Positions 20,061 to 54,084 of a stretch of 64,000 nucleotides of DNA are shown piece by piece (position 1 is the first letter of the stretch; every line of letters begins with the position of its first letter). The notes below the pieces were generated by a model. It was not told the origin of the DNA and ran no database searches. It saw only the letters and a list, made by a program, of their open reading frames with translations. The position numbers and the translations under genes are program-made. The DNA is taken from positions 32,001 to 96,000 of IMG/VR virus record IMGVR_UViG_3300028833_000006; one strand, written 5' to 3'. Source of the DNA: a virus (taxonomy: Duplodnaviria; Caudoviricetes).

Positions 20061-22223
20061 CTATACATTATCTTGTGTCTTGAGTTTTGTCGCTTTGGTC
20101 TTTTTCTGCTTTAAGACTTGTGACTGCATGGACTGATATGCGCCACCGCCAACTTTTCCTACACCACCATTTGTAGAAATTTGGTTGCCTTGATTTCCTT
20201 GCCCCCCTTGTGCCCCTTGTCCATTGGTAGGGGTGGGTGCTTGCTGTCCTTGATTATTCGTGCCCCTATTATTATTGGCTTGAGTTGAATTTAAATTTTG
20301 TTGCTCACCGCTGACACTCGTGTCACTTTCCTCATCCCCCTTGTCTGAGTTGGTGGGGCTTTGGCTATTACCGTTGGAATTAGGGGAGGGTTGTCCTTGT
20401 GCCATCATTGATGAGACTGCCATGTTCTGCTCAATTGCTTGTTGAGATTCTTCTTGAACTCTTTGCAGTGCATCCATTGCCTGTCTCTTGGTCTCTCCGT
20501 AATACCACATTCTTGTTTCTAACTTGCTTGCCAATCCCTTGTCCATGAGAGTGAGCCTTGTGTTTAACTCTGTTACCATGTCTACTAGAATGCTGTCATC
20601 CCATGTGAATGAGACATCGTAAAGACCTAACTTCTTGGTGTCCACTTTGCCCCCTCGGATTACTACGTCTCCGACAATGTTGTAAATTGTGCAGTAAACG
20701 TCCATTGCGTAAATTACGTCTTTAAGGGCTGACTCTAATGCTTTTTGGATTTCTGCGTTGCTTGCGTAACTTCTTTGCTTTAAAATCTTAATCTCTGTTG
20801 CTGTTCTCGCCTCTGCGCTCACGTCTGCGATTGTGCCCCTGCTTAATGCCACTACGTCTTCAATTCGCATCAAAAGCGTGTTTAATCCATTAATCATTGA
20901 CGCATCTCTAAGGCTTGGTGCGTAAGGTTTGTAAGTGTCTGACTCACCTAAGTCAACTGGTCTGTAAAGTCTTTGCTGTAAGTGCCCCATCATTGAATGA
21001 GAATTACCCTTAAAGTCTGTTACATCTGTAAGTGCATCTCTGTCAATGTCAATTGCTAATTCGCCACCTTCGTACTCCCAAAGTAATCTAGAATACTGTA
21101 AATCCGCTTGCTTGATTAACTCCTTTGCTCTTGCGAAACCACTGATTCCTAACGGTGAGTGCGGGTCAATCGTGTTTGCTTCTGGCATCTTAAAATAACC
21201 AAACATCATTCGGTCTACGTTCTTAATTGTTGCCCTCTGCGGAATGTTCTTCCATTCTGGAACTTGCTTTAACTCAATCTCTGCCCCAAGCACTGCGTTG
21301 CCCAAAGTCATCGTGTTGTCTGTTCGGTTCAGACTCCTAAATGCTCTGTTAGTGATTGTAACTGTGTTATTCTCCAACTTGTGATACTCTAACCTAGTGT
21401 AAGTGTATTCCTTGTCAACCTTGGTCTGTAAGAATGCTACCTCTATTAGATTGCCACTGCTGTCAAATGAAAAAGGATAAAAACAATCTGCTTGTACAAA
21501 GTCAAACTCTATAGCGTACTTGTACTTCTTATTGTTCTTATCTGTTTTTATCTCTGCTGTTCCCTCTGTGTCATTAGTACTACTTTCAGAATTTGATTGC
21601 TCGTTTGTTGATTCAGCGTTGGCTACACCTTCTGATTTCTGCTCTGCCTTTGCCCCCACCTTACTATTATCAAGTCCTGCTACCTCTGCTACTGCCATTC
21701 TTGTCACATAAGGTTTTATTATAAGACTACCTTTAGCAATACCCAATTCAAGTTGTGTTCTTAATCTAGAAAGCAACTTATCTTGGTATTCCTTATTCAT
21801 AAACTCCGCTCTCTCTGTTGGAGATTTTGCTTTTTCCTTTATTACTGTTTTGGGTTTATTGCTAATAGATATGTTTCCATTTATATCTGATACTGGCGGT
21901 TGATACTCTGGATTAACAACTTCTTGAATACTCATTGGTGCGGTTATCTCTGACTGTAATTCTAATACCGCCATCCTTGCTTTTTCACTTGCTATAAATG
22001 CTGGTAACCCCAAAGACGTTACTAATGAATGGTCTTTGAAATCTGGTTCGTGCAACCAATCTGCTCTGTCTTCATACATTGCTGTCCACTCATCAATAGC
22101 ATCTATCATCTTACTACTGATTGCTGGTGAAATATGTAATGTTTGTTCAATATTTTTAACACCTATCATACCTTGCACCTTCTCTTTAACTGTTGACCAT
22201 AATGACATATTTATATACCTCAT
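20061..22223 (-). CDS. Portal protein (A118/SPP1-like) with low-complexity extensions
   Basis: YTRLEYH, ANTIDPHSPLGIS, RTATEI and FTWDDS motifs; true start may be M6 (22208). Confidence 0.85.
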   Translation of the reverse strand: MRYINMSLWSTVKEKVQGMIGVKNIEQTLHISPAISSKMIDAIDEWTAMYEDRADWLHEPDFKDHSLVTSLGLPAFIASEKARMAVLELQSEITAPMSIQEVVNPEYQPPVSDINGNISISNKPKTVIKEKAKSPTERAEFMNKEYQDKLLSRLRTQLELGIAKGSLIIKPYVTRMAVAEVAGLDNSKVGAKAEQKSEGVANAESTNEQSNSESSTNDTEGTAEIKTDKNNKKYKYAIEFDFVQADCFYPFSFDSSGNLIEVAFLQTKVDKEYTYTRLEYHKLENNTVTITNRAFRSLNRTDNTMTLGNAVLGAEIELKQVPEWKNIPQRATIKNVDRMMFGYFKMPEANTIDPHSPLGISGFARAKELIKQADLQYSRLLWEYEGGELAIDIDRDALTDVTDFKGNSHSMMGHLQQRLYRPVDLGESDTYKPYAPSLRDASMINGLNTLLMRIEDVVALSRGTIADVSAEARTATEIKILKQRSYASNAEIQKALESALKDVIYAMDVYCTIYNIVGDVVIRGGKVDTKKLGLYDVSFTWDDSILVDMVTELNTRLTLMDKGLASKLETRMWYYGETKRQAMDALQRVQEESQQAIEQNMAVSSMMAQGQPSPNSNGNSQSPTNSDKGDEESDTSVSGEQQNLNSTQANNNRGTNNQGQQAPTPTNGQGAQGGQGNQGNQISTNGGVGKVGGGAYQSMQSQVLKQKKTKATKLKTQDNV

Positions 22224-39835: not shown

Positions 39836-40573
39836 TTATTTTTTAGTAGTCTTGGCACGAATAATTAACTCATTATGGTCATTATCCCATTCAAGTTTTT
39901 TAATGTTTAGCCCAGACTTCCTATCAAATACTACCTCAGACTCTTGTCCTGTCGGACTAAATAAAGCCTTTGTGCCTTTAGTACCAACATATTCTATCCT
40001 AACTGGATGATGCCAATCCTTAAATGCTGAATCGCTTAATGACAGATTGTATGTCGCTGATTGGAATGTCTTATCATAATAAATTGCGTCATTATTCTCT
40101 AAGAAATTATTAATTTTATCCATTCTCTTCTGCACAATATAGTGCAATACATCTGGGTCAACACTATTTAAATCTGGTGTTGCTAACCCAAATGACTTCA
40201 ACATAGACAGTAACCATTTACCAGTTGTTAACCGAACTACATTTATATCAGCATCAAGTGGCTTCATATTCTTATCCATAGTTGCCAAAGTCTTCTTCAC
40301 TCGATTAAGTCTACTCTCTTGGACTTCTGGACTTAATGCATTCCACTGTGGGTGTTGTGCCCTAATTGCATCATCCAATGGCACTCCGTTCACTTCATGC
40401 TCACGTATCGCCTTATTTAATCTCCAACTCTCTGATGTCTGAAAGTATCCGTACCAATTTGAATCACCGTCAAGAATTGCCTTATCCGCATCTGATATAT
40501 CTGTACTCTTTGTGGCTACGTCCGAATACCCACCGCTATACTGTCTTCTAGAACCATATCCATACGAACCCAT
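39836..40573 (-). CDS. ADP-ribosyltransferase (VIP2/C3-like) with MGSYG N-terminus
   Basis: Y...LNKAIR, VVR, FQSAT and ESEVV (R-S-ExE pattern); RBS before MGSYG. Confidence 0.7.
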   Translation of the reverse strand: MGSYGYGSRRQYSGGYSDVATKSTDISDADKAILDGDSNWYGYFQTSESWRLNKAIREHEVNGVPLDDAIRAQHPQWNALSPEVQESRLNRVKKTLATMDKNMKPLDADINVVRLTTGKWLLSMLKSFGLATPDLNSVDPDVLHYIVQKRMDKINNFLENNDAIYYDKTFQSATYNLSLSDSAFKDWHHPVRIEYVGTKGTKALFSPTGQESEVVFDRKSGLNIKKLEWDNDHNELIIRAKTTKK

Positions 40574-40622
40574 AATCCATCTCCCAATAAGAAAGCACCC
40601 ACAATCCGTTGGGTGTAGGTAC

Positions 40623-40769
40623 TCACTTTTTCTTCTTCTCCTTGTAACCAGACTTCTCAATAGCGTAACCTTGCTTTATGGCTTTCTGCTTTGCGCCCTT
40701 ACCGCAATATACTGTCTGATTACCCCACTGATAACAATCTTTCTTACCTTTTACTTTATGTACTGGCAT
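40623..40769 (-). CDS. Small basic phage protein (48 aa)
   Basis: Below ORF-track cutoff; MPVHKVKGKKDCYQWGNQTVY...KAIKQGYAI; GAGGTG RBS. Confidence 0.6.
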   Translation of the reverse strand: MPVHKVKGKKDCYQWGNQTVYCGKGAKQKAIKQGYAIEKSGYKEKKKK

Positions 40770-40907: not shown

Positions 40908-41114
40908 TTAATACATCATGTCTAAGCAACTTGCTACTGCTTGCGGTGAATGACTTGCTGACACACCCTTTACGTATCCGTCATAGTCATCCTTGATATG
41001 CGCCTTAACGCTATCAGTATTGAAATACTTCACCATCTCATCGGTGCTGTAACCGCACCCCATGAATGCCTTTCTTACCGCCTTTGTGTAATCCTCAAAT
41101 GTCATCTTACTCAT
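40908..41114 (-). CDS. Small protein coupled to the upstream effector gene
   Basis: ATGA overlap with 41111..41866. Confidence 0.55.
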   Translation of the reverse strand: MSKMTFEDYTKAVRKAFMGCGYSTDEMVKYFNTDSVKAHIKDDYDGYVKGVSASHSPQAVASCLDMMY

Positions 41115-41866
41115 CTCTGTTCTCCTTTCTTCTCCTTTATTTGTCTATCACGATATGCATATGCATTATCATAACCGTCATCACCGACATATGGCTTTGT
41201 GTTCTTTAGGAATGTATCTAAATCAGTATTCTTGACATTGCCTATACCAACATACTTATAAAATACAACTTCCTCTTCGCCACAGCCACTTTTATCCCAA
41301 CCATCTGGTGCGTAATCCTTATTAAATGGTGTCCAACTAATCGGCTCAAATCCATTGGCTGTATAGAACTTATGGTTACCTGCGAAACTATCAAGTTTCC
41401 TACCACCCATCTTAACTGCTTGGGCTAATAAATCCTTACCACGGACTGTATTATCACCCTGTTTCTTACATACACTAATGATATCACCCTCGTCTGTCAC
41501 GGCTACTGTAGAACCACCTTTGGATGTCCAACACTTACTATTGTGTTCTTTGTAGTCATCTGCGGTATGAACATCTACTCGCCACTTATCCTCAACTGGT
41601 CTTGATTCCTTGGCACTTGTAATATCTTTGTGGAATGTTGTAGCATCTACTGACCTACCACTATCACTGTTTGACTTACCATTAAGCCTATCTCTTTCAG
41701 CCTTTGCCTTGGCTATCTGCTGTTCCTTGACATCCTCATTATGGTCTGCAACGCTACGATTATCACCAAATGCTTTTCGTATAGCGTCTGCTTTAGTCTC
41801 GCCTGCACCTATCGGTATATGTTTACCATTAACGGTTATCCATTGCAAATCTTTACTATCTGCCAT
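41111..41866 (-). CDS. WITVNG-leader protein with GNAT-like acetyltransferase domain
   Basis: Shared leader; DIISVC...RGKDLLAQA...LDSF...FYTANGF. Confidence 0.55.
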   Translation of the reverse strand: MADSKDLQWITVNGKHIPIGAGETKADAIRKAFGDNRSVADHNEDVKEQQIAKAKAERDRLNGKSNSDSGRSVDATTFHKDITSAKESRPVEDKWRVDVHTADDYKEHNSKCWTSKGGSTVAVTDEGDIISVCKKQGDNTVRGKDLLAQAVKMGGRKLDSFAGNHKFYTANGFEPISWTPFNKDYAPDGWDKSGCGEEEVVFYKYVGIGNVKNTDLDTFLKNTKPYVGDDGYDNAYAYRDRQIKEKKGEQR

Positions 41867-41867
41867 A

Positions 41868-42047
41868 TCACACCTCTAATACTTCTGCTAAATCATCTTC
41901 ACCAACTGCGTATACCTCATCATTGTTTGCTTTAACACCCCACGCATCAAGTTCTCTATCATATCCCATTACTTCATATATCTCGCCTTTGGTATATGCC
42001 CAACTTGACTCGCCTAAATATCTTACTTTCTTTCCTGCTTCTAACAT
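41868..42047 (-). CDS. Small SH3-like protein (possible immunity partner)
   Basis: KVRYLGE...KGEIYEV; directly downstream of 42058..42579. Confidence 0.5.
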   Translation of the reverse strand: MLEAGKKVRYLGESSWAYTKGEIYEVMGYDRELDAWGVKANNDEVYAVGEDDLAEVLEV

Positions 42048-42057
42048 TTTACCCTCC

Positions 42058-42579
42058 TTACTTACGTGTTTCAAGGTTTCTTATATGCTCTTTAATAAAT
42101 GCTTCTCTGACTTTTTTATCTTTACCCTGTACCCAATGTACCTCACGATTTAAGGTTACTTTACCATTAGTTATTTGTGCCATTCCTGCACAATGTTGCC
42201 AATCTTCTGGTTTACCACCCCAACGCTTTGCGTACTTAGATGCATCTCTAAATTCTTTTGAGCATCCTTTTCCTGCAAACACATATACATTCTTTATAAA
42301 TGTACCATTCTTAAATCTGTACCTCTGTTTAGTCCTTAGATTTAACACATCAGATGATGTATTAGCCTCACTCGCTGGGATATCTGGTAAGTATAATATC
42401 TTTGGAAGTGGTTTTCTGCTATCAGCCTCTTCCTTATTTCTCGCCATCTGCTTATTCTTTATCTCTTCATTCTTCCTAGCGATAGACTCATTTTTAATCT
42501 GAGATTGAGATTTGTAATTAGGGTCTAGTAGTATATGCTTACCATTTACTGTTACCCAACGCATTTCTTGGTTTGCCAT
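42058..42579 (-). CDS. WVTVNG-leader protein with putative toxin/nuclease domain
   Basis: Shared leader; VFAGKG...WQHCAG...EVHW C-terminal domain. Confidence 0.5.
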   Translation of the reverse strand: MANQEMRWVTVNGKHILLDPNYKSQSQIKNESIARKNEEIKNKQMARNKEEADSRKPLPKILYLPDIPASEANTSSDVLNLRTKQRYRFKNGTFIKNVYVFAGKGCSKEFRDASKYAKRWGGKPEDWQHCAGMAQITNGKVTLNREVHWVQGKDKKVREAFIKEHIRNLETRK

Positions 42580-42590
42580 ATATCACACCC

Positions 42591-43877
42591 CTACTTCTTC
42601 TTGGGATGCTCTTTATCCCACTGTGCTTTTCGCTTCTCAGCATAAGCATTGTATTCAAATATCTTATCAGGTGTATAATTGAATGACTCATCGTGCTCTG
42701 CACTCTGAAAAGTATTCCATCTACCTTGGTCTATAATAGATAACTTCTTGCCACCAGTCTGACTTGCTACCTTAGTTAACTTCCTACCCGTATTATCCCA
42801 CAATGTAAAACTATCATAAAGACTTGCTATCTCTGGCACTGCCTTTTGTGCTTTCCTATGTGCACCCATCAATACTTCTACAGGGACTAAACGGTTCATA
42901 CCATAATCGTCACCCTTACAGTATCTGTATATGGAATTTTCCCTTACCGTAGGTTCGTCTGCAAAAATATAGTTTTGGTGACAAGTATAACCCTTATCAC
43001 GACACGACTTCAATCTTCTCTCGACACTCTTAGATTTTGTTGCTGTACCATCGTACATTACGGGATAGTTGTTATCTATAGCCATTGACCATACTTGGTC
43101 GGCTAATGCGGAACTTTCATTGTGGTAGTATCCTGCATTGAACAAATCTTCTATCTTGGCATCAGGATTAGCTGCCTTAAGCGACTTAAACTCATCGTCA
43201 TACATACCATTAGCCAAATCGTGTCTCCACAGCATGTACTTCAATCTGTCTGCGTCTATAACCAAATGTTGTTTATCACTGCCATAGAATTTACTAAACC
43301 CACTACCTTCAAGTGACATTGCGCTTAATTGCCCCTTACCAGCAGCACCACCGCCACCAGTAAACAACGCTTTCTTCTCCTCACCGGGCGCATAAGGCTT
43401 ATATGTAACTGGATGGTCTTCTCCATTTACGGGTATCTTATTAAAATAATCCTCAAGAACTTCTCTATGAATATCTGCTCTCTCTTGTGTGAGATTTCCA
43501 TTCTTATCAAGTGCTCTATACATAGAGTCGCCATTAGGGAACTTATCATTAGGTTGTGTAGTAGTAATCTCATCATACTCACCTAACTTATAATCTTTAC
43601 CCTTAAATGACATCACGCCATTCTTGTTAGTTACTTTAGTACCTTGTGTGAGATTATCACGATATTTCTGCTCATCTTGCAATCTCTTCGCCTCGGATTG
43701 GGCTTTGGCTATATCAGACTGTTGCTTATCAACTGCCTTTGCGCCACGCTTACTGGCCTTTGCTTGTGACTGTTCCTTAACCCAACGCTTTACAGCATCA
43801 TCTTTAGATTCACCGTCATATAAGGGTACATGATTACCATTTATGGTTATCCAATTTTTCGGTTCTTTATTCGCCAT
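42591..43877 (-). CDS. WITING-leader protein with zeta-toxin-like P-loop kinase
   Basis: Shared leader; TGGGGAAGKG Walker A, IDAD, YDGT, RLVP and WDNT motifs. Confidence 0.7.
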   Translation of the reverse strand: MANKEPKNWITINGNHVPLYDGESKDDAVKRWVKEQSQAKASKRGAKAVDKQQSDIAKAQSEAKRLQDEQKYRDNLTQGTKVTNKNGVMSFKGKDYKLGEYDEITTTQPNDKFPNGDSMYRALDKNGNLTQERADIHREVLEDYFNKIPVNGEDHPVTYKPYAPGEEKKALFTGGGGAAGKGQLSAMSLEGSGFSKFYGSDKQHLVIDADRLKYMLWRHDLANGMYDDEFKSLKAANPDAKIEDLFNAGYYHNESSALADQVWSMAIDNNYPVMYDGTATKSKSVERRLKSCRDKGYTCHQNYIFADEPTVRENSIYRYCKGDDYGMNRLVPVEVLMGAHRKAQKAVPEIASLYDSFTLWDNTGRKLTKVASQTGGKKLSIIDQGRWNTFQSAEHDESFNYTPDKIFEYNAYAEKRKAQWDKEHPKKK

Positions 43878-43889
43878 ACTAGTACCCCC

Positions 43890-44147
43890 TTACCACGGTA
43901 TATTATGCTCTGCTCTAGACGCATAATCAAGTAATCTAAGTTTATACAACTCGTAATCAGCCTTATTCGCAAAATTATTTGCGCCCTTGATTGGTCTCCG
44001 ATTGACAATATCACCATATGCAATTGCGTCTACCTTGTTGTACTGCGGATTGTCATAATCACAATCATAATCAGCAATAACCTTTGGGTCATAGGTGACA
44101 TTCTTGTAATAGGCAATCTCTTTTGGTGTCAAATTTTTATTTGCCAT
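43890..44147 (-). CDS. Hypothetical protein (upstream of the zeta-like gene, possible antitoxin)
   Basis: AAAGGAGG RBS; first gene after a promoter repeat. Confidence 0.5.
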   Translation of the reverse strand: MANKNLTPKEIAYYKNVTYDPKVIADYDCDYDNPQYNKVDAIAYGDIVNRRPIKGANNFANKADYELYKLRLLDYASRAEHNIPW

Positions 44148-44406
44148 CTTCTTATCCTCCTTTCCTATTCTCTTTCCATAATAAGTATATACCAATATGT
44201 CAAGAGTGTCAATAGGAATTTTGAAAAATTTTTCAATATTTACTTTAAATCATCTTCTTCTGGGTCTTCCCACCACGGTATTTGTATCATATAATATACC
44301 CAATAGTTTACATAATAAAACAACCTATCCATATTATACTGAATAGGTTGCCTAATGTCTACTCTTCTTCACTAGTTTCCATTTTTCTATACGCAAAAAA
44401 TGTAGG

Positions 44407-44598
44407 CTACGCTCTCCGTGCAATTGTGATATCGTTACTAATTTTTAAACTTGTCGCCCTTTCCAAATCTTCTGCTCTGACTACTATCATATTTGCCATT
44501 GGTCTTGATTCTATTGGATATATACCATTCTTATTAAGTTTCTTAATCTGCTTTGATATAACTGAATAGTTCTGCATTGTCTTCATATTATATTCCAC
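44407..44598 (-). CDS. Hypothetical protein
   Basis: ORF track. Confidence 0.4.
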   Translation of the reverse strand: MEYNMKTMQNYSVISKQIKKLNKNGIYPIESRPMANMIVVRAEDLERATSLKISNDITIARRA

Positions 44599-44767
44599 TA
44601 ATCTCCCTCACATAACAATCATCTAGTTTTGCGAAATCAGACCTACCTGCACCTATCCGAACATACAACTTACCGTCATCCTTATTCAAATATACTCTAT
44701 TCCACTCCTCGTCATCATCAAGCCACACTATAACCTTTGTAATTACAAATCCGTCTGTTCTTGTCAT
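44588..44767 (-). CDS. Hypothetical protein
   Basis: Start MTRTD after AAGGAG. Confidence 0.45.
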   Translation of the reverse strand: MTRTDGFVITKVIVWLDDDEEWNRVYLNKDDGKLYVRIGAGRSDFAKLDDCYVREISGI

Positions 44768-44781
44768 ACCAATTCTCCTTT

Positions 44782-45081
44782 CTACTCTGCCCACACACAT
44801 CTCTCACTGTACGGAACATATCTCTTTGCTACCTTAAACCACTTCTTATTATCAAGCGAAACCTCTAAATATTCACATACCATTGTGACATCATAAGTTG
44901 AGCACATTCTGTAATCTCTCTTAATATAATTATCGCCCAAATCCTTGACGCAACGAAGATATCTGTAAAAACCGTCCTTGATATAATACACGATATCCTT
45001 AATTAAAGGTTCTTCACCCTTAATAATCTCTTCCCAACCCATTGCTTTCATATTATTTACGGATAATTCTGCTCTAGTCAT
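44782..45081 (-). CDS. Hypothetical protein
   Basis: AAAGGAG RBS after a promoter repeat. Confidence 0.55.
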   Translation of the reverse strand: MTRAELSVNNMKAMGWEEIIKGEEPLIKDIVYYIKDGFYRYLRCVKDLGDNYIKRDYRMCSTYDVTMVCEYLEVSLDNKKWFKVAKRYVPYSERCVWAE

Positions 45082-45237
45082 ATTGGTTATCTCCTTTCCT
45101 TACAATACCATTATAGGTGTATACTTATATATTGTCAAGTAATTTTTGAAAAATTTTTCAAATGACTTACACTTGAATCATATATGATACATTTAATACA
45201 ACAAAAAGGACAGCCAAAACTGACTGTCCAATTTAAA

Positions 45238-45894
45238 TCATATTAACTTAGTTTGGTGTGGTTTCTTTTTGTCTACAACCGTCATATGCCGTAATTTACC
45301 TGCACAACTCCTAGAACAAGTTTTAGTCGGCTCATACTTGTTTATACTAAACTCCTTACCGCAAATGACACATACCCTAGTAACATTATCCTTACCAACA
45401 TGTCTCCTATAATAAGATTTACAAGCATTGCTACAAAAAGTATTCTTCTTACCTGTATTGCACGCAATAAACTCTTTGCCACAATTAGTGCATGTACATG
45501 TTATGGGTGCATTTAAAATACCCCGCTCTATTAACCGCTTTGCGTTCTCTCTACTAACGGCTCTACCCTCTTCTGACCTATGCCACGCACTCGCTCTACT
45601 TCTATACCTGGCTAATGTTTCAATATCCTTTTGTAATCTTTCTTCGGACTTATGTGTTCCATGATATGTAGAATGCGTCTCATTTGATAAACATTCTAAA
45701 TTAGATATATCATTATTGCCACGGTTCTCATCCCTATGGTGTATTACACAACCTTTTGGAATCACACCCACTTCATGTTCCCACACATATCTATGCATCA
45801 AAACCGTATGACCATCAAGTTTTGTAATAAAATATCCATCAGACCGCCTAGTAAATTTAATACCATTGTAAAATTGTACCCTACTCTCTGCCAT
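45238..45894 (-). CDS. Free-standing HNH homing endonuclease with C-terminal zinc fingers
   Basis: MHRYVWE...IHHRDENRGNNDISNL; CxxC...FCSxxC repeats; AGGAGG RBS before MAESR. Confidence 0.85.
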   Translation of the reverse strand: MAESRVQFYNGIKFTRRSDGYFITKLDGHTVLMHRYVWEHEVGVIPKGCVIHHRDENRGNNDISNLECLSNETHSTYHGTHKSEERLQKDIETLARYRSRASAWHRSEEGRAVSRENAKRLIERGILNAPITCTCTNCGKEFIACNTGKKNTFCSNACKSYYRRHVGKDNVTRVCVICGKEFSINKYEPTKTCSRSCAGKLRHMTVVDKKKPHQTKLI

Positions 45895-45972
45895 ATCATA
45901 CCTCCTATATATAGGAATAGTATAACAAGAATAGGCAGAAAAGTAAATATCCGTATCGCACAATATCCGCAA

Positions 45973-46428
45973 TTAGTTACCTTTTCTACTTGCGTATTTG
46001 TCAATACCGTACCTTACCGCATCAATACTGTGGTCGTTCCCATCTGGATATGCACTAATGAAATTACCTTCCTTGTCTGTCTCATACTCATAGTTAGTAA
46101 ATTCTGCATAGGTGTAGGGGCACTTTCGTCTATCTATATAAATGTGATTAAGTCCCTGTAACCACTTCATAGAATAAGTACGACTCTCTGGCCCCTTTAC
46201 AGCACCACGGATAAATGCGCCATACGCCTTAAAGTCTGCTATTGACTTCGGCTCTGCGGAATCTGCGATAAGTTGCTCATCCTTCCTAATGAGTTTTTTC
46301 TCCTCATATAACTCATCAAAAATTTCCTTATTCCTCTTCATATAGGTGTTGTATTCTCTAAAGATGTACAAATCTAAATGCTTAGCATCAAAATGCATTT
46401 TAACAAATCTAGTAGGGTCTTTAGCGAA
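45973..46428 (-). CDS. terL: Terminase large subunit (PBSX family), exon 3
   Basis: FAKDP, ADSAEPKSI and DHSIDAVRY nuclease motifs; join(47968..47556,47122..46702,46428..45973) = 1290 nt, 429 aa in frame. Confidence 0.88.
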   Translation of the reverse strand, partial: FAKDPTRFVKMHFDAKHLDLYIFREYNTYMKRNKEIFDELYEEKKLIRKDEQLIADSAEPKSIADFKAYGAFIRGAVKGPESRTYSMKWLQGLNHIYIDRRKCPYTYAEFTNYEYETDKEGNFISAYPDGNDHSIDAVRYGIDKYASRKGN

Positions 46429-46701
46429 CATATTTAACCCTTATCTACCCTCGGTTTCCCGATATTTATTAGGGGATTAGACTATCTCTTAATATTATGG
46501 TTTACATAATATTCAGTGCACTTCGGACTGTGCTAATCTCAGCCCTACTTCCTTACGGAATAGTCGTTACACCTTTCCTTTCGGACTTGGCACGGTATTG
46601 TCATAGGCTGTTGCCCTTAGAGTTTCACCGTTAGCCGTATCTTCATATGACACCGCTTTTGCTTGCGTTCACACTGTTTTATACTGGAGCTACGCTACCC
46701 A
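46429..46701 (-). ncRNA. Group I intron 2 in terL (no ORF)
   Basis: Interrupts GLDWG|FAKDP after U and ends in G; P CTAACGGTGAAA, Q CAATACCGTG, R GTAACGACTA, S AAGAGATAGTCT. Confidence 0.85.
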
Positions 46702-47122
46702 ACCCCAGTCCAATCCATTATAAATCTTGTCAAATGTCTGCCACATAGGTACTTGTCTGTCACCCATCTCTACCAGTTGCTCCATGTCCAAGTCTTCTGC
46801 ATTAGGGAATACATCTCCACCTGTACCAATGGCTACACCCATGTATTCATGGATATAGGCTCTCTCATTCCTCTGCCTTAACTCCTCTGCCTCTTCCACA
46901 AACTGCATCCCTAGCCAGTCTATAGGGACATCAAAGTAAGTATTACTTGTTACTAATGTATTCTCTTGCAACTCTGCCTGCTCTGCATATTGATTAGCCC
47001 AATTAAGTTTACTGATAGGAGGGTTGAATGTTCTAAAATCCCAAAAGTTTTGACCACCACGCATTGTAGACTGTAATACCTTACGTATCTCTGCCTCGCC
47101 TGCGAACTGGTCAAGTTCCTCA
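46702..47122 (-). CDS. terL: Terminase large subunit, exon 2
   Basis: EELDQFAG Walker B, TFNPP, YIHEYMG and GLDWG. Confidence 0.85.
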
Positions 47123-47555
47123 CTTGGAGCATTGCGTATATAGCGTAAAGTTTTGTTATACGCTCCTATATTACTATAGGGTTCGGACTATATCATACTG
47201 TATATAACTGTTACCATTACATACAGCCCTTGCGCTTCGCTTTCGCTACTCTACTTACTTCTTCACATAAGGATTTCTCTTATGCTATGCTTTCGATAGT
47301 CTCTGAGCCTTCCTATCACATGGTTTGTGCATATTGCACAATGGATTTCTGAAATCGCAAAATCAGTTTGTATTTCCCTAGGGGAGATTTTTTATACCCC
47401 AAGGATACCCAATTCCGCAAACCCTTGATTTTACTGCATTTGTAGACTTATGTGCAAATTGCACAATAAAATGATAGGCTTGGTTGCTGATTGTCCTATA
47501 TGCGTATAGGATTTCCAGCAGTTCACAAGGTTTTACATGGTCTGAGGTCTAGTTA
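47123..47555 (-). ncRNA. Group I intron 1 in terL (no ORF)
   Basis: Interrupts ITWF|EELDQ; P AACTGCTGGAAA, Q AATCAGCAACCAAG, R TCAGAGACTA, S GATATAGTCCG; U before the 5' splice site and terminal G. Confidence 0.88.
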
Positions 47556-47968
47556 AACCATGTTATCCCGATGTAGCCAAATGACAGTTTGATTGACTTA
47601 ACCTTATTTGGGTCATCTAACCCCATAAAGATTATCTTCTGGCCAGTCGGAATATATGTTATAGGTGTTGAATAAGTTTTTGGAATCTTAAACAGACTGT
47701 CTACCCCTAACTGATATATCCCCCATACTACTTGGGCAAATATACTGTTCTGTATTGTATTTCCTACCTTGCGGAAACATACAGCGTGTACAGTGGGATT
47801 TGACATAATGAGTAGCGGAATACAAATACCACCGTAAAAAGAAGACTTTGTACTTCCTCTACCACCTTTACCAACATAATGTGTATGCTTATGTTGTAAT
47901 ATATCTTGTAGAATAGGTTTATACATAGGTATAATACATCTATCTAAAGATATACTCATATCACTCAT
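47556..47968 (-). CDS. terL: Terminase large subunit, exon 1
   Basis: KGGRGSTKSS Walker A, FRKVGNTI and GLDDPNKVKSI; GGAGG RBS. Confidence 0.88.
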
Positions 47969-48193
47969 TCTCTTACCTCCTTTTATTTTACTCTGTGTCA
48001 ATATTCAATTTTCAAGGTGCACATCATGGTGGTGTAGCCACTCGCTATTATCCACCCACCACTCAACTTATTGTTATTGTACTGTCCAATTTATCACTCT
48101 GTCAAATATTTGTACACAATGGGTACAAAAAAGGCTTGTTTTATACGCAAGCCTTATATTTTCCCTATAGGAACTTTTTATCTATGTATAGTC

Positions 48194-48712
48194 TTATGTG
48201 AGGTCAAGATTGCCCATTTCATCAGCATTTTCAGTTGGTGTAGCCACTATGTCCTTGACCAATTTCATCCCACTCTCTGCACTCTCACTACTAGCCCAAT
48301 CTAATGTTATCTTTATCTCTGGTGTCTTATTGCTCTCTAACTTATTAGGTATGTCTATAAGCCTTTTTGCCAACTCTTGTGCCGCCTTTGTGCGCTCTGC
48401 TAAACTCGCTTCAAGTCCGAATTGGTCTGTGATTTCGCCCCTTGCCACTGAACTGAAATATTCGAGCACTTCTTCTGCTGTCATAATGCTAGATTTCCTT
48501 ATTTCTTGCATTCTGTAAGCAATTTCATTGGCGATATAGTCTTTTTTCAGCAGTGCGTTTGCTTGCTGTGCAGGTGTCCTACTCTTATATCCTGCATTAA
48601 TTGCACTTTGAGAAGCATTACTTGTTTCTATATATTCTGATATAAACTTATCTTCTCTTGGCGTTAAGGGATGTCCTGTATATGTTGTTAATTTTGTATT
48701 TACTTTTGGCAT
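48194..48712 (-). CDS. terS: Terminase small subunit
   Basis: LTPREDKFISEYI...NASQSAINAGY, EVLEYFSSVARGE and RTKAAQELAKR. Confidence 0.88.
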   Translation of the reverse strand: MPKVNTKLTTYTGHPLTPREDKFISEYIETSNASQSAINAGYKSRTPAQQANALLKKDYIANEIAYRMQEIRKSSIMTAEEVLEYFSSVARGEITDQFGLEASLAERTKAAQELAKRLIDIPNKLESNKTPEIKITLDWASSESAESGMKLVKDIVATPTENADEMGNLDLT

Positions 48713-48783
48713 ACTTATTATATACCTCTTTCTCTAATCTCTTATTCCGCCCGACTTTTGGGGATTTTTATATGACATGTATG

Positions 48784-48966
48784 TCATTTATTTACTTCTT
48801 GTACTAATCCTTTTGTTATCCAACTTAATGGTACTGCTTTTTGGTATCCCTTTATTGAATTTTGCCCCCGATTTTCCGTGAATTTTACTGCTATTCTAGG
48901 GTCTGCTTTTCCTAATTCTGTTAGTATAAATTTTGTATTTTCTGTTGCATGTTTATAAGTTACCAT
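48784..48966 (-). CDS. Hypothetical protein
   Basis: 60-aa ORF with AGGAG RBS. Confidence 0.45.
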   Translation of the reverse strand: MVTYKHATENTKFILTELGKADPRIAVKFTENRGQNSIKGYQKAVPLSWITKGLVQEVNK

Positions 48967-49143
48967 TTGGATTTAGTACTCCTAGATTATTTGAAATATT
49001 TTTCATATTTCACTTTTTCCGCAAAACATATTTTTTGACATTAGTGTCATATTGTCTTGTTTTTGTTTACATAAAACATTATATCACAAAAAGGTAAAAG
49101 AAAAAAGAGATATTTTTATCTCTTCTCTCTTATGACACATATG

Positions 49144-49674
49144 TCATTTTACTATTCTTGTATGTACATACCACTTAGCTGGTTCTGTTTTATATTCATC
49201 TTCATCATTAAATCTTCCTGCACTATCTACGGGTTGATATTCTAATATATATTGTACTCCGTTATTACTATCACTTGGATTATTATATTGTTCTGCCTCA
49301 CCCGCTTTTACGCTTGCCCTTAATGCATCTGCTTCGCCCTTATCATATTTACCTAATGCCTTTGCTAAATCACTCAATGCACCTTTGAGTGTTGGCTTAT
49401 TACTATATCCGTCTATATCTACAAACTTATCCGTAATTATCGCTGTACCAAATACAAGTATATTGCTTGGTATATCCTCTTCTTTTCTCGTAGTACCCTT
49501 ACTATCATTAATGTCTTTGATATTTTTAGTACTTTGCTCTATCTGCTTTGCTTTTAAGTCTTCATTATTTTTGGCTACTTGTCTATTGTATGCGTCTTGG
49601 GTAGTTTCACCTTTATATATTGGCACATGTACCCCTTTTATTGTGACCCATTTTTCTATTTCTCGCTCTACCAT
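49144..49674 (-). CDS. WVTIKG-leader protein, unknown C-terminal domain
   Basis: Shared leader KWVTIKGVHVPIYKGE. Confidence 0.6.
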   Translation of the reverse strand: MVEREIEKWVTIKGVHVPIYKGETTQDAYNRQVAKNNEDLKAKQIEQSTKNIKDINDSKGTTRKEEDIPSNILVFGTAIITDKFVDIDGYSNKPTLKGALSDLAKALGKYDKGEADALRASVKAGEAEQYNNPSDSNNGVQYILEYQPVDSAGRFNDEDEYKTEPAKWYVHTRIVK

Positions 49675-49698
49675 AATTTAACCTTTCTGACACATATG

Positions 49699-50478
49699 TC
49701 ATTTTCTTTTATTTGGTACTAAATATTCTTGTTCTGCTGTTGTTTGATAACTTCCCCATGTATCTATAGGTCTTATTTTTATCTCTGTTATTTTATCGCC
49801 AAACTTTTCCGCTATTTTTCTATCTGGTGTATAAGCACTGAATATATCATTTGCTACTTGTTTTTGTCCGTATTCACCTCTATACATTGTTATTGGTGTT
49901 GTTAACCAATCTTTGAATGATAACGGTTTTTCTTTACTGCCCCGAATTTTTTGTATTTCAATATCGCCCAAGTAATTGTGATATGCTATATTAAGCCCTG
50001 CATTTAATGTACCTTTATTGGACAGTATATAGTCTACTAATTTTGGTTTGATATCACTATTCGCACTTCTAAACCAACCACTATGTGTTTGCTCTGGAAT
50101 ACTCTCTCTTATCTTGGATACTGCATCTTCTATTTTCATCTCATGCACATCCTTAAGTTCCTCTTCCGCTCTCTTATCTCGCCACAACTGCTTTACCATA
50201 TCCATATGGTGTGTTCTGCCATATTCTTTGAATTGTGGATTTGACATATTATCTTTTATGAATGCCTTAAAATCAGTATTATCTTTTACTGTTGGTATAT
50301 CTGATTTACCGTTTAACTTATCCGCTTGCTCTTTGGCTTTTGCGATTTGTTTTTCTTTGGTATCTTCATTCTTTTCTGCTATATATCTATTTACTGCTTT
50401 GTCTTTTGATTCACCGTCCATTATTGGTATATGTTGACCGTTTACAGTAATCCATTGTTTTACTTCTCTTTCTGCCAT
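49699..50478 (-). CDS. WITVNG-leader protein with ART-like C-terminal domain
   Basis: Shared leader; MYRG...FSAYT...EQEYLV. Confidence 0.55.
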   Translation of the reverse strand: MAEREVKQWITVNGQHIPIMDGESKDKAVNRYIAEKNEDTKEKQIAKAKEQADKLNGKSDIPTVKDNTDFKAFIKDNMSNPQFKEYGRTHHMDMVKQLWRDKRAEEELKDVHEMKIEDAVSKIRESIPEQTHSGWFRSANSDIKPKLVDYILSNKGTLNAGLNIAYHNYLGDIEIQKIRGSKEKPLSFKDWLTTPITMYRGEYGQKQVANDIFSAYTPDRKIAEKFGDKITEIKIRPIDTWGSYQTTAEQEYLVPNKRK

Positions 50479-50561
50479 TTATAATACTCCATAAATTCAG
50501 TATTTATCAGCGTTTCACGGATTTATGTCCGTGAGTGACAAACATATGACATGTATGTCAT

Positions 50562-51002
50562 TTATTTTGACTTGTCTTTCTTATTACGGAAATACCACTC
50601 TTTGCCCTCGTCCGAGTTAGCAAATGCCTTTGCCTCTTTCAATGTCGAAAATTTTTGTCTCTCCTTAAGCCATGCTTGGTTCTTTATACCTAACTCATAT
50701 CCGCTCTCTTTCCACGATGTGTTTGGTGAATTATGTGTGTATTTATCAATCTTAAATAATTCACTCTCATATCTTTTATTATTAATAGACGAATGAACCA
50801 ACTTAAATATCTGTGGTGCATACTCACTATTATTCATCCGATTTACTTGGTCGGCACGGTCTTTTATTTGCTGTTCTTTTATATCTTCATTGGCTTTAGC
50901 AACTGACCTATTATATGCGTCTTGTCTGCTCTCTCCCTCAAAGATTGGAACATGTTTTCCATTTACCGTTATCCAATCCTTTACCTCTCTTTGCTGTACC
51001 AT
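50562..51002 (-). CDS. WITVNG-leader protein, short C-terminal domain
   Basis: Shared leader KDWITVNGKHVPIFEGE. Confidence 0.6.
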   Translation of the reverse strand: MVQQREVKDWITVNGKHVPIFEGESRQDAYNRSVAKANEDIKEQQIKDRADQVNRMNNSEYAPQIFKLVHSSINNKRYESELFKIDKYTHNSPNTSWKESGYELGIKNQAWLKERQKFSTLKEAKAFANSDEGKEWYFRNKKDKSK

Positions 51003-51027
51003 AATATCCTCCTAATTGACACCTATG

Positions 51028-51168
51028 TCACTTTTTCTGTAATCTCTCATAATATGCCTTAACCTTTTTCATATCAGGTAAGTTCTCTGTCGGTCGTTTA
51101 TAGTTTTTTGGCATATCTATCATCGAATCTGGCTCTTTGTATGTTTTTGGTTTCTGCTCAATTATCAT
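51028..51168 (-). CDS. Small protein downstream of the metallopeptidase-like effector
   Basis: Start MIIEQK after a GGGGGT RBS. Confidence 0.4.
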   Translation of the reverse strand: MIIEQKPKTYKEPDSMIDMPKNYKRPTENLPDMKKVKAYYERLQKK

Positions 51169-51181
51169 ACTTTTACCCCCT

Positions 51182-52249
51182 TTATTTAGAATACAATCGC
51201 TCATAAAATTCTTTAACACCATTTGTATCAGTAGACGTTACATTACTATACAATTGATTTGTAAGTCTCATAACCTCTTGTGCCAATATATTTGCACTAG
51301 TACCATAGGCTTTATAATTTATATAGGATTCTGCAAACACCTCAGTATTAAAATCTTTTCCGTGTATATCCTCGGTATTGTAATGATTCGTAAACACATA
51401 GCCGCTCAATTGGTGAACTAATTGTCCCACTGTCGGTTTACTACTAAACCATCCGTACTTCTTCCAATTTTTCTGAACATTATTTATTGCCAAGGGAACT
51501 ATGATACCACTTATCATAGGATTACTTGCAGGATTAGTATTAAAATCAGCACAAGAATACAATTTACCGTCTAATTTAAAACACTTGACGCTTGTGTCAC
51601 AATCTGGTATATCTGATACAACCTCATCAACCTTTAACTTTCGCCCAAGTGCCCTACCATATGCCTCTGCCCACTTCTCATTACGCATTGTTGTGGGTTC
51701 TTTATACACTAACGGTGCGTGATTCATTAACACATTATACATCTGCATATCCACATTATGTGCTAATTCATGTGCTACAATGCTATCTGCAAAATCACCG
51801 TTTCCTGCCAAATACCCCTTGTCACAAAGACCTTCGATGTGCTCTTGCGTAAACTCATAATCATTAAATAAATCACTACGCAATTGCAACATACCTAGTC
51901 CATTCATAGCACCAAGCGTGCCACCCATTTTAGATTTATCTTCAATCTGTATATAATCTATCTCTTTAACCTCTGGATAATCATTATGTATATCTTGTGC
52001 TACCCTTGTAATATCATCAACAAATCTTTTATCCTTGATTGTACCAAGTATCTTAAAATTATCTTTATTTACCTTGGTCGGATTTAACTGTTCTGCTTGC
52101 TCTTTAGCCTTTGCTATGTCACGCTCTTTTTTGCTTTCATTCTGCATAGCAACACTACGATTAAATGCGTCTTGTACAGATTCACCGTCATATATCGGTA
52201 CGTGATTCCCGTTTATCGTTACCCAATTTTTTACTTCTCTATCAGCCAT
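51182..52249 (-). CDS. WVTING-leader protein with zincin metallopeptidase domain
   Basis: Shared leader; IVAHELAH (HExxH) and EVFAESY; start re-assigned to MADREVK. Confidence 0.65.
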   Translation of the reverse strand: MADREVKNWVTINGNHVPIYDGESVQDAFNRSVAMQNESKKERDIAKAKEQAEQLNPTKVNKDNFKILGTIKDKRFVDDITRVAQDIHNDYPEVKEIDYIQIEDKSKMGGTLGAMNGLGMLQLRSDLFNDYEFTQEHIEGLCDKGYLAGNGDFADSIVAHELAHNVDMQMYNVLMNHAPLVYKEPTTMRNEKWAEAYGRALGRKLKVDEVVSDIPDCDTSVKCFKLDGKLYSCADFNTNPASNPMISGIIVPLAINNVQKNWKKYGWFSSKPTVGQLVHQLSGYVFTNHYNTEDIHGKDFNTEVFAESYINYKAYGTSANILAQEVMRLTNQLYSNVTSTDTNGVKEFYERLYSK

Positions 52250-52293
52250 AATATATCTCCAATATGACAAGTCTGTCATATATTGATTATACC

Positions 52294-53291: not shown

Positions 53292-54068
53292 TCACTTCTT
53301 TGCATTAACCTTTTTACTTATTTTTTCCTTAGATATTGTTGATTTATTATCCTTACTTATTGCTTGATTCTTTGCAACACCTAACATATAAGCATTTACA
53401 TGTATTCTTCCACCAGAATCTTGTCTGACAGAATTTGGGTCGTATCTGAATACTGAATTATTATTCACAAGTACTTCATTTTCGCCATTATTAGATGATA
53501 TGGGGTCAACGTATGCACAATATCCTTTACTCTTAGGAATTGCTAAATGTATAATGAGACCACTACTTGATACACCCATACCTCTATCACCTGCACAAAA
53601 AGATAAAGCACCATCATTTTGCAATACACCGCCACTAGCGTTTAAAAAATCCTTAACTTCATCAACTGTCATTTTTACACCCTTACGCTTACCAAACGGT
53701 CTAAAATCTGTCTCTCTTGTAACATTGATACCTTGCTTTAACTCAAACTTATTTATGGCATCATGCAAATTTTCAACTATTTGCCTATACTGATTAGACT
53801 CGGACAGATTTTCAAGTGGTGTGTTAAACATCATCTTATTTAACTCTCTATATAAACTGCCAGTATATCTCTCTACTGCATACAACTCATCGGAACTTAA
53901 TCCGCTATTATTCTCATCATTTATCCACACGTTCTGATTTGAGTTTCTTGAGTTAGAAAACCAATCCACTGCCTCATCATAACTCTCAAAATCCTTAAAA
54001 TCTCTAGATTGTGCCTTTAATTGTTGATAAGTTCCACCACTATTATTGGTTATACCATAACTACCCAT
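53292..54068 (-). CDS. ADP-ribosyltransferase (VIP2-like) with MGSYG N-terminus
   Basis: YTGSLYRELN, VTR, ALSF, AYVDPIS and ENEVLV. Confidence 0.75.
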   Translation of the reverse strand: MGSYGITNNSGGTYQQLKAQSRDFKDFESYDEAVDWFSNSRNSNQNVWINDENNSGLSSDELYAVERYTGSLYRELNKMMFNTPLENLSESNQYRQIVENLHDAINKFELKQGINVTRETDFRPFGKRKGVKMTVDEVKDFLNASGGVLQNDGALSFCAGDRGMGVSSSGLIIHLAIPKSKGYCAYVDPISSNNGENEVLVNNNSVFRYDPNSVRQDSGGRIHVNAYMLGVAKNQAISKDNKSTISKEKISKKVNAKK

Positions 54069-54084
54069 GAACAATCACCTAAAA

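Follow-up and report, generated by a model that had tools for sequence, protein, structure and literature searches.

The same unnamed module stands at the N-terminus of eight unrelated, toxin-like proteins of one uncultured phage, and in other phages it connects portal, MuF or head-protease proteins with toxins. We lean, with slightly more than even confidence, towards reading the eight genes as free-standing 'cargo cassettes', each consisting of a conserved adaptor and one interchangeable effector, whose products are carried in the capsid and injected. The existence of the family, its predicted fold, wide distribution, junction position, neighbourhood and several of its cargo identities are supported by the results below. 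The genes belong to a 111,212-bp complete virus record with terminal repeats, from an uncultured gut or rumen phage. The window, the stretch of 64,000 nucleotides of this record that was analysed, contains seven of them (Table 1).

Table 1. Leader genes, partner ORFs and other genes considered here (window positions, except for leader gene 8)
Feature	Position	Strand	Length (aa)	Description and basis
Leader gene 1	41111..41866	-	251	Possible GNAT-like domain; alignment and profile
Partner ORF of gene 1	40908..41114	-	68	Overlaps stop codon of gene 1
Leader gene 2	42058..42579	-	173	Degenerate leader (HILL) and beta-rich domain
Partner ORF of gene 2	41868..42047	-	~59	Directly after gene 2
Leader gene 3	42591..43877	-	428	Zeta-toxin-type P-loop kinase; Pfam
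Partner ORF of gene 3	43890..44195	-	101	Immediately upstream of gene 3
Leader gene 4	49144..49674	-	176	Cargo without assignment; leader alignment and profile
Leader gene 5	49699..50478	-	259	Helical domain and R-S-E ADP-ribosyltransferase-like domain
Leader gene 6	50562..51002	-	146	Cargo without assignment; profile
Leader gene 7	51182..52249	-	355	Zincin-like HExxH metallopeptidase; from ATG at 52249
Leader gene 8	G000:C1:11192-11359			Outside the window; adjoins primase and helicase genes; cargo without assignment
ADP-ribosyltransferase	53292..54074	-		No leader; adjoins the cluster; Pfam ADPrib_exo_Tox 9.8e-16
Weaker ART-like gene	39836..40660	-		No leader; Pfam ADPrib_exo_Tox 2.4e-4, below family cut-off
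Terminase small subunit	48194..48712	-		phrog_51, 1.1e-30
Terminase large subunit	45973..48001	-		Three exons; PHROG terminase matches on all three pieces
Group I introns (two)	47164-47574 and 46458-46711			In terminase large subunit
Portal protein	20061..22223	-		SPP1 gp6 type; phrog_533 1e-98; homologues with PF05133
Scaffold	19097-19837	-		phrog_194/phrog_422 assignment for scaffold and capsid pair
Major capsid	18176-19069	-		phrog_194/phrog_422 assignment for scaffold and capsid pair

The leader is a conserved module with a predicted fold

The initial annotation had described seven ORFs with a common leader and complete divergence thereafter, and both descriptions were borne out. All seven exist on the minus strand, flanking the terminase genes, and an alignment spans their first ~57 residues, in which M1, W9, T11, G14 and H16 are invariant; beyond the leader the sequences are unalignable (21-33% identity to the first sequence, derived from the leader). 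The count of seven is correct for the window and rises to eight with the copy outside it. Against the leader profile, every one of the eight copies reached an E value of 1e-25 to 4e-33, so the likeness is not due to chance. The consensus of the adaptor hairpin is W-[IV]-T-[IV]-x-G-x-H-[IV]-P-[IV], then G-E-S-K-x-D-A, with a long charged helix in this lineage. Most copies carry the motif as first proposed, but gene 2 reads HILL in place of H[IV]P[IL]; the leader of gene 3 has an 11-residue insertion within the helix.

Two independent AF2 models, of genes 5 and 2, agree in predicting a beta-hairpin and one long helix for the leader, placed in gene 5 at residues 6-20 and 25-56, respectively (pLDDT 89-97). 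Within the genome, the 11-codon leader core has a nucleotide identity of 65%, with pS of 0.70-0.72, near saturation, and pN of 0.13; judged from these codon comparisons, the leader is under selection at the protein level. The conserved His is not catalytic, since homologues of the same cargos have Arg or Pro in its place. Neither Pfam nor NCBIfam has a family that matches the leader, and no named PHROG matches it either; the Pfam families presumably include the LPD domains of the paper on polyvalent proteins.

Cargo domains and partner ORFs

Of the enzymatic identities first proposed for the cargos, one was confirmed and two were supported. The zeta-toxin-like kinase of gene 3 was confirmed by a Pfam Zeta_toxin match (2.7e-14, residues 160-353), and its P-loop, FTGGGxAxGK, is kept in seven homologues. 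For gene 5 (AF2 model with pLDDT 88), Foldseek/VIA matches were weak, with E 0.016 or worse and Z up to 4.5, and were nearly all to R-S-E ADP-ribosyltransferases (ARTs); the R (YRG), S and ExE elements are kept in 10 full-length homologues of 12 aligned, which supports the ART-like call. The HELAHN motif of gene 7 is kept in three homologues and its atlas neighbours included clusters named 'Pro-Pro endopeptidase family' and 'Metalloprotease family', at a TM by query of 0.51-0.59, in agreement with the proposed HExxH metallopeptidase. Further atlas neighbours of gene 7 were C-terminal portions of MuF-bearing proteins, and Pfam gave a weak match to M90.

The GNAT-like call for gene 1 found weak support, two of 12 homologues matching Acetyltransf_7 (0.03). 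The gene 1 family alignment contains a conserved block, GGSTVA...GDI..C...G..L...AV..GG.KLD..GN..FY...GFEP, and a PDB profile search with this family gave no match. The putative nuclease called from VFAGKG/EVHW in gene 2 was unsupported, as the model (pLDDT 82; above 90 over residues 61-160) matched no PDB fold (Z up to 4.3). Instead, the gene 2 cargo domain recurs within MuF-annotated minor capsid proteins: it matched a 451-aa BFVD 'Minor capsid protein' (E 2.5e-9, 30% identity), and its atlas structural neighbours bear PF06152, PF04233 or VG15. Comparison with the MuF core itself by hhalign gave a probability of 0.2%. Genes 4 and 6, initially listed as two unknown domains, still carry no assignment. 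The sole homologue of gene 4 (L026:2989-3456) retains the helix and has no hairpin, while the search for gene 6 homologues returned none besides gene 6 itself.

Conserved small partner ORFs accompany the cargos of genes 1, 2 and 3. Homologues of the 68-aa ORF, a candidate antidote or immunity protein, lie directly downstream of gene 1 homologues in four loci (L006, L008, L009 and L016), and those of the ~59-aa ORF, with 45-68% identity, lie directly downstream of gene 2 homologues in seven (L006, L008, L009, L012, L014, L016 and L018). The 101-aa ORF also stands immediately upstream of gene 3 homologues in L010 and L014. Neither the 68-aa nor the 101-aa ORF matched a Pfam family. By analogy, these small conserved ORFs appear to form arrangements resembling toxin-antidote pairs.

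Packaging and head genes of the genome

The two introns of the large terminase gene scored 54 bits (E 1.5e-11) and 32.6 bits (E 3.6e-5) against Rfam Intron_gpI. The portal protein ends in a Q/N/G/S-rich C-terminal tail of ~110 residues and lies 19-32 kb from the leader cluster. Portal, scaffold and major capsid genes follow one another directly, with neither a MuF nor a protease gene in between. The initial annotation had claimed the absence of MuF between portal and scaffold; this absence extends to the whole 111,212-bp genome, in which no MuF family was detected. The prohead protease families S78, ClpP, DUF2213 and S77 were likewise not detected in the whole genome.

Distribution of the module in other phages

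With a threshold of E 1e-3, the survey of C-terminal partners by leader profile, as proposed at the outset, recovered 994 cluster representatives, of which 216 remain at E up to 1e-10. The module occupies residues 1-57 in nearly all of these, in proteins of 54-520 aa. Their C-termini are almost all without a Pfam match; among 149 scanned, three were ARTs and one was a zeta toxin. Leader-bearing relatives carry PF15644, PF18760 (ART-PolyVal) and PF18812. The module was not found in 50,697 cultured-phage records, nor did the searches turn up a cultured relative.

Among the occurrences in IMG/VR loci, 22 of 111 were internal. The motif was found behind portals of PF06381 (2.8e-82), PF04860 (1.5e-31), PF06074 (7.6e-9) and phrog_10963 (up to 6e-84), behind DUF2213/phrog_3778 head-maturation proteases (2e-43, 2.8e-98), and behind MuF (PF04233, 7.6e-16), where a Gln_amidase toxin follows. 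One fusion protein has the order portal-motif-ART-motif-X. An acidic run precedes the Trp of internal copies. The surroundings of free-standing leader genes were sampled as the 107 largest ORFs (at least about 310 aa) within 4 kb, across 50 loci; these comprised 25 large terminases, 14 portals, nine MuF proteins, four DUF2213 proteases and four capsid proteins. Leader genes immediately adjoin MuF in four loci (L028, L029, L038 and L044). In ~35-kb gut phages, the leader gene closes the replication block, just ahead of the terminase. Homologous cargos were found behind differing leader variants in different phages.

Proposed role as capsid cargo and alternative explanations

From these results we infer what follows on packaging, docking partner, injection, targets and cleavage. 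The cassettes would be made alongside the packaging and head genes, and the hairpin would dock each of them to a component within the procapsid, with the charged helix as a rigid spacer. As the phage has no MuF carrier, the SPP1-type portal, or another component at its vertex, would be a first guess at the docking partner. The proteins would accompany the DNA out of the capsid and, in the newly infected cell, serve takeover or counter-defence, and for at least three cassettes the conserved small neighbour ORF probably holds the effector inactive in the producing cell. The initial proposal of a tag on modular effectors is partly and indirectly supported: in other phages the module links toxins to a portal, MuF or prohead protease and free-standing copies lie in packaging and head modules, cargo types recur as the C-termini of MuF fusions, and the genome has no MuF. 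The parts of it that require revision are the number of members, which is eight, the nuclease, and the His, which varies in relatives. A T4-style tag that is cut off by a prohead protease is unlikely here, because no family of such proteases was detected in the genome. A single loading role is also questionable: cargo already fused to portal or MuF would need no loading tag, but such fusions retain a conserved motif, which may therefore serve release, ejection or another step. Its presence behind at least four portal families, MuF and protease is hard to square with one specific docking partner, and the two ARTs that adjoin the cluster without a leader count against a tag.

Gene placement bears on whether the proteins are packaged at all. 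The distance of the cluster from the portal, the eighth copy among replication genes and the position in ~35-kb phages make late expression an assumption. T4 ModA and ModB are enzymes that act inside the producing cell, and the effectors could similarly remain unpackaged and serve as takeover or anti-defence enzymes there, the leader being a common interaction module through which they might, for example, oligomerize, bind the same host or phage factor, or be regulated by one inhibitor. The remoteness of the cluster from portal and head genes, the eighth copy among replication genes, the placement at the end of the replication block in ~35-kb phages and the partner ORFs, which suit intracellular toxin-antidote pairs equally, would fit this. 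We consider it unlikely, as it leaves unexplained the module behind portal, MuF and prohead protease in single polypeptides and the free-standing copies elsewhere that directly flank MuF and portal genes. Those same fusions could indicate that processing or release is the main role of the module, which would mark a boundary at which self-cleavage or a peptidase (a prohead protease elsewhere, the gene 7 zincin here) frees the cargo, with loading achieved through something else. The motif marks each junction between carrier and cargo or between two cargos, with two copies in one portal fusion, and is fused behind prohead proteases; an acidic run stands before the internal Trp; and zincins have been proposed to cut polyvalent proteins into units (PMC5512222), one of the eight cargos being such a peptidase. 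However, the genome has no detectable prohead protease, the module is predicted to be well folded, unlike a typical extended cleavage site, free-standing proteins have only ~8 residues upstream of it, and self-cleavage through the His is made improbable by the Arg or Pro of some homologues. Processing as the main role is therefore quite unlikely, although it can coexist with capsid carriage.

A role in recombinational swapping is attributed to the conserved pre-toxin motifs of CdiA and Rhs polymorphic toxins. The leader could likewise be chiefly a DNA-level homology handle for the exchange of cargos, given the polymorphic-toxin architecture of conserved head, swapped tails and partner ORFs, and the homologous cargos behind different leader variants. 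This explanation is very improbable, since leaders with only 65% nucleotide identity, nearly saturated synonymous sites and low pN are too diverged for homologous recombination and point to selection on the peptide.

Comparison with known systems

Gene 3 shares with epsilon/zeta systems a zeta-toxin P-loop kinase and a conserved ~100-aa ORF upstream, which holds the position of the epsilon antitoxin, a likeness of gene order only. Unlike in those systems, the upstream ORF matches no antitoxin family and the kinase bears a phage leader within an effector cluster. The T4 capsid targeting sequence (IPI-III, Alt) and the P1 DarB N-terminal signal are, like the leader, short N-terminal elements on unrelated proteins, and the proteins that bear them, one an ART, are loaded into the head and injected (PMC3012670, PMC9024508). 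The T4 signal, some 10 residues long, attaches to the scaffold core and is removed by the gp21 protease, whereas the hairpin module has no sequence likeness to these signals, is a folded unit of 30-57 residues, doubles as an internal junction and occurs here in a genome with no detected prohead protease.

Polyvalent proteins (Iyer, Burroughs, Anand, de Souza and Aravind 2017, PMC5512222) have the same repertoire (zincin peptidase, ART, PBECR, MuF/portal fusions) and the same proposed delivery from the capsid, and leader-bearing relatives share ART-PolyVal and PF18812 with them. They differ in having 2-15 domains per chain, compared with one effector per leader protein, and no description of the hairpin module was found in the text of PMC5512222. 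The MuF polymorphic toxins (Jamet et al. 2017, PMC5576092), in whose text the words 'motif' and 'linker' are absent, differ in that the eight leader proteins have no MuF domain and their genes are apart from the portal; the MuF toxins occur in temperate phages, and a 111-kb record with terminal repeats is not a typical temperate prophage. However, they likewise combine a head-associated front end with interchangeable toxins (ART, peptidase, deamidase) and have downstream partner genes that may be immunity genes; in SPP1, gp7 attaches to the portal through its MuF domain. In relatives, the hairpin module lies between MuF and toxin, and the domains that genes 2 and 7 carry as cargo are also seen in MuF-bearing proteins.

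Leader genes around the terminase

The seven ORFs described in the initial annotation as sharing an N-terminus were all present on the minus strand, alike over ~57 residues and completely divergent thereafter. Five residues of this leader (M1, W9, T11, G14 and H16) are invariant across the seven. Seven ORFs was the correct number for the window, but the leader profile detected eight copies genome-wide (E 1e-25 to 4e-33), the eighth lying outside the window, where it adjoins primase and helicase genes. Each of the eight proteins consists of the leader and one cargo region (the C-terminal domain behind the leader). The leader genes lie at 41–52 kb of the window; the position of the portal gene is listed in the table. 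Four copies are upstream of the small terminase subunit and three downstream of the large subunit, and the genes had therefore been correctly described as flanking the terminase. The family is real and well delimited, and can be seen as a novel variation on the theme of virion effectors.

Features of the window discussed in the text (window coordinates)
Feature	Position	Strand	Remarks
Leader gene 1	41111–41866	−	
Leader gene 2	42058–42579	−	
Leader gene 3	42591–43877	−	
Leader gene 4	49144–49674	−	
Leader gene 5	49699–50478	−	
Leader gene 6	50562–51002	−	
Leader gene 7	51182–52249	−	
Partner ORF	41868–42047		Follows gene 2 in 7 loci
Partner ORF	40908–41114		Follows gene 1 in 4 loci
Partner ORF	43890–44195		Precedes zeta-like gene in 2 loci
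19-nt palindrome TATGACATGTATGTCATTT	48771–48789, 49131–49149, 49686–49704, 50545–50563, 52263–52281		Five copies; core TGACA-N4-TGTCA
Leader-less ADP-ribosyltransferase-like genes	53292–54074, 39836–40660		
231-aa protein	52570–53265		
PP-loop (SGGKDS) PAPS-reductase/QueC-like gene	38615–39661		
Portal	20061–22223	−	phrog_533 at 1e-98; homologues with PF05133
Scaffold	19097–19837	−	Directly after portal
Major capsid protein	18176–19069	−	After scaffold
Large terminase	45973–48001		Three exons; group I introns (Rfam RF00028) at 47164–47574 and 46458–46711
HNH endonuclease ORF, free-standing	45238–45972		After last terminase exon

The small partner ORFs of genes 1, 2 and 3 matched no family. 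By analogy, conserved small ORFs beside three cargos are the layout of toxin–antidote pairs. The palindrome copies occupy gene boundaries within the right-hand leader cluster as well as the region preceding the small terminase gene. Some coincide in part with promoter-like ATGACA-N16–18-TAxAxT sites. The palindrome probably serves a phage regulator as its operator. Two leader-less ADP-ribosyltransferase (ART)-like genes bracket the cluster. As read from the translations, both can start MGSYG from an internal start and the adjacent 231-aa protein starts MGGIVVGG, which may constitute a second, different N-terminal signature.

Structure and nature of the leader

The leader falls outside all Pfam, NCBIfam and named PHROG families. 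For each of two different members, AlphaFold2 predicted a β-hairpin (about residues 6–20) and, after it, one long helix (25–56), with a leader pLDDT of 89–97 in the model with the deeper alignment. The helix is Lys/Glu-rich and is conserved in its own lineage only, Gly/Ser/Lys-rich linkers taking its place elsewhere; the elements common to all are therefore the hairpin and G-[EQ]-[ST]-K-x-[DE]-A.

A reading of the leader as an HNH-like or His-dependent self-cleaving motif was rejected, as some homologues with the same cargos have Arg or Pro in place of the His. One-residue insertions also occur. The motif therefore has a structural or binding role and not a catalytic one. A role as a recombination handle is disfavoured by the 11-codon leader core, in which nucleotide identity is 65 % and pS is near saturation (0.72) compared with a pN of 0.13; these values point to leader copies that are old and constrained as peptides.

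Distribution of the module

The leader profile was run against 1.84 billion cluster representatives and had 994 matches with E-values of 1e-3 or better, 216 of them reaching 1e-10. The module was located at residues 1–57 in nearly all of the best 150 of these 994 matches, in proteins of 54–520 aa. The C-termini were almost entirely unrecognised by Pfam, with three ARTs and one zeta toxin among 149 scanned; a second search detected further relatives with Gln_amidase (PF15644), ART-PolyVal (PF18760), PF18812 and DUF2213. One match of 2440 aa with seven matched stretches (P0009) was considered as a seven-leader polyprotein but contained just one hairpin motif, the other stretches matching the charged helix. 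The carriers of the module were uncultured gut and rumen phages, plus 22 MAG contigs, mostly Clostridia, and no carrier was found among 50,697 cultured-phage records. Eight free-standing hairpin genes without the long helix, with small cargos (90–520 aa), were observed on a second uncultured phage contig (IMG/VR contig 2061766007_000957, 64.6 kb; loci L033 and L075).

The module as an internal junction

Across 78 IMG/VR loci, the motif was internal in 22 of 111 occurrences, 120–830 residues into long ORFs. Upstream of the internal motif were portals (PF06381 at 2.8e-82, PF04860 at 1.5e-31, PF06074 at 7.6e-9 and phrog_10963 at 1e-36 to 6e-84), MuF (PF04233 at 7.6e-16, TIGR01641 at 3e-13), in which case a Gln_amidase toxin follows, or, in other ORFs, a DUF2213/phrog_3778 head-maturation protease. 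Portal–motif–cargo fusions include L027:2760–4829 and L073:7033–10272, and one protein had the order portal–motif–ART–motif–X. At the point corresponding to the start of a free-standing gene, some internal copies retain an in-frame Met, accompanied in three cases by a ribosome-binding site, which suggests recent fusion or nested expression. An in-frame ATG with a GGAGG-like site was observed 8–15 codons before the motif Trp in L039:4958–6094, L043:9422–11170 and L069:1272–3506; these carrier–motif–cargo fusions may therefore allow additional, separate production of the cargo from a nested start, comparable to lambda C/Nu3 or Mu I/Z. A description of the junction module was not found in Jamet 2017 (PMC5576092), Iyer 2017 (PMC5512222) or further full-text literature searches.

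Free-standing leader genes directly flank MuF genes in four loci (L028, L029, L038 and L044). Among the 107 largest ORFs (of at least about 310 aa) situated at most 4 kb from free-standing leader genes in 50 loci were 25 large terminases, 14 portals, nine MuF proteins, four DUF2213 proteases and four capsid proteins. A leader protein of 125 aa is encoded just upstream of the terminase in gut phages of ~35 kb. PAPS_reduct genes also occur beside leader genes in unrelated ~35-kb gut phages, and the PP-loop gene of the window lies just downstream of the left-hand cluster.

Cargo domains

Gene 3 encodes the zeta-toxin-like kinase that had been proposed, with a Pfam zeta toxin match (PF06414) at 2.7e-14 (53.5 bits against a cut-off of 22.3) and a conserved P-loop. 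Searches of PDB sequences with genes 1, 2, 5 and 7, both single-sequence and profile, yielded nothing useful. For gene 5, the proposed ART-like motifs (YRG, S/T and ExE) are kept in all 10 of the 12 aligned homologues that are full length, but there was no Pfam ART match and fold matches were weak; the model matched almost solely R-S-E ADP-ribosyltransferases (best Foldseek E-value 0.016; maximum VIA Z 4.5, with rmsd 3.5–3.8 over about 100 residues). The HExxH of the proposed gene 7 metallopeptidase is conserved, but the Pfam M90 match is weak (0.046). Its nearest atlas structures were Pro-Pro endopeptidase-like and metalloprotease clusters (TM 0.51–0.59), plus C-terminal parts of MuF proteins. 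The GNAT assignment of gene 1 was reduced to a weak likeness (Acetyltransf_7 at 0.03 in two of 12 family members and GNAT_acetyltran at 0.0097 in one of 12), with an empty PDB profile search. The cargos of gene 4, gene 6 and the eighth copy matched no known domain.

The nuclease proposed for gene 2 was unsupported, with no fold match reaching Z 5 among 48,161 chains and no Pfam PBECR or MuF_C match. No PDB fold matched its confidently modelled β-rich domain (Z up to 4.3), a homologue of which (30 % identity, E 2.5e-9) lies inside a 451-aa ‘minor capsid protein’. Atlas structural neighbours raised the possibility that gene 2 is a hidden MuF, which was rejected: three MuF-type Pfam models were empty across the genome, Pfam gave no match in 10 family members, and hhalign of the cargo against a MuF-core alignment gave a probability of 0.2 %. 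The gene 2 cargo resembles an accessory domain found in MuF-annotated proteins, not the MuF core.

Genome and head module

The virus record is complete (111,212 bp with direct terminal repeats); the window has ~36 % G+C and nearly every gene is on the minus strand. No close relative of this uncultured phage was found among the 50,697 cultured-phage records. The phage has an SPP1-type head module, with scaffold and capsid genes directly after the portal, and the MuF models PF04233, PF06152 and PF25310 had no match in the whole genome (E up to 1–10), in agreement with the initial annotation that no MuF gene lies between portal and scaffold. No prohead protease (S77, S78, ClpP or DUF2213) was detected in the whole genome. 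The portal C-terminus (20061–20400) is a Q/N/G/S-rich low-complexity tail of ~110 residues with a basic stretch at its end; in most of 32 relatives the tail is shorter by ~100 residues. The terminase introns matched RF00028 with 54 bits (E 1.5e-11) and 32.6 bits (E 3.6e-5), and many Staphylococcus, Listeria, Enterococcus and Bacillus phages have a terminase region that matches ~60 nt at the intron-2/exon-3 border (46436–46498) with 90–94 % identity.

A possible capsid-loading module

Phages inject proteins together with DNA, and to our knowledge the rules for protein entry into the head are poorly known outside T4, P1, P22, T7 and N4. The simplest reading of the data, and one that we favour on balance, is that the hairpin marks capsid cargo, although we infer the mechanism. 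The same cassette of hairpin, linker and effector occurs either as a gene of its own or joined to the end of a protein whose place inside the procapsid is certain. The hairpin is found after MuF, after proteases and after portals belonging to several families, and fusion does not abolish its conservation; its role may lie in release or ejection, or in binding a component shared by all heads. Given that neither MuF nor a prohead protease was detected in this phage, a T4-style cut-off signal is unlikely, and the best guess is that its leader proteins would dock without a carrier.

A more tentative proposal, which we consider possible but rather doubtful, is that the hairpin is a self-sufficient, portable adaptor for capsid loading and ejection that needs no fusion to MuF or portal, that this SPP1-type head can thereby carry a mixture of at least eight different effectors, and that the hairpin is a general, as yet unnamed ‘address label’ of gut and rumen phages. 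If so, it could be reused for loading chosen proteins into phage particles. The module, both a free N-terminal tag and a joint behind portal, MuF or head protease, is shared by roughly a thousand protein clusters that are otherwise unrelated. It would provide a sequence handle for finding virion-delivered effectors, most without a known fold, in metagenomes, for studying how cargo docks and is released, and for introducing foreign proteins into phage particles in the laboratory. With eight tagged genes in a phage that lacks both MuF and a prohead protease, the window offers a clean test case.

Comparison with known systems

Effector fusions to MuF and portal, with proposed injection, are established ideas (PMC5576092; PMC5512222). 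T4-type CTS internal proteins have a short N-terminal signal that the prohead protease removes, whereas here the module is folded, of 30–57 residues, and no such protease was detected. MuF polymorphic toxins (Jamet 2017) resemble the leader genes in having variable C-terminal toxins on a conserved N-terminus. However, they have an N-terminal MuF domain (PF04233, PF06152 or the related MuF3/MuF4) and are encoded immediately downstream of the portal, neither of which applies to the leader genes. They may also have an adjacent cognate immunity gene, a role for which the conserved small ORFs beside genes 1, 2 and 3 are candidates by their position. Polyvalent proteins (Iyer 2017) contain two to fifteen effector domains per polypeptide, in contrast to the one cargo region of each leader protein, but their repertoire (zincin MPTase, ART and PBECR, among others) in a virion-gene context is shared by the leader family.
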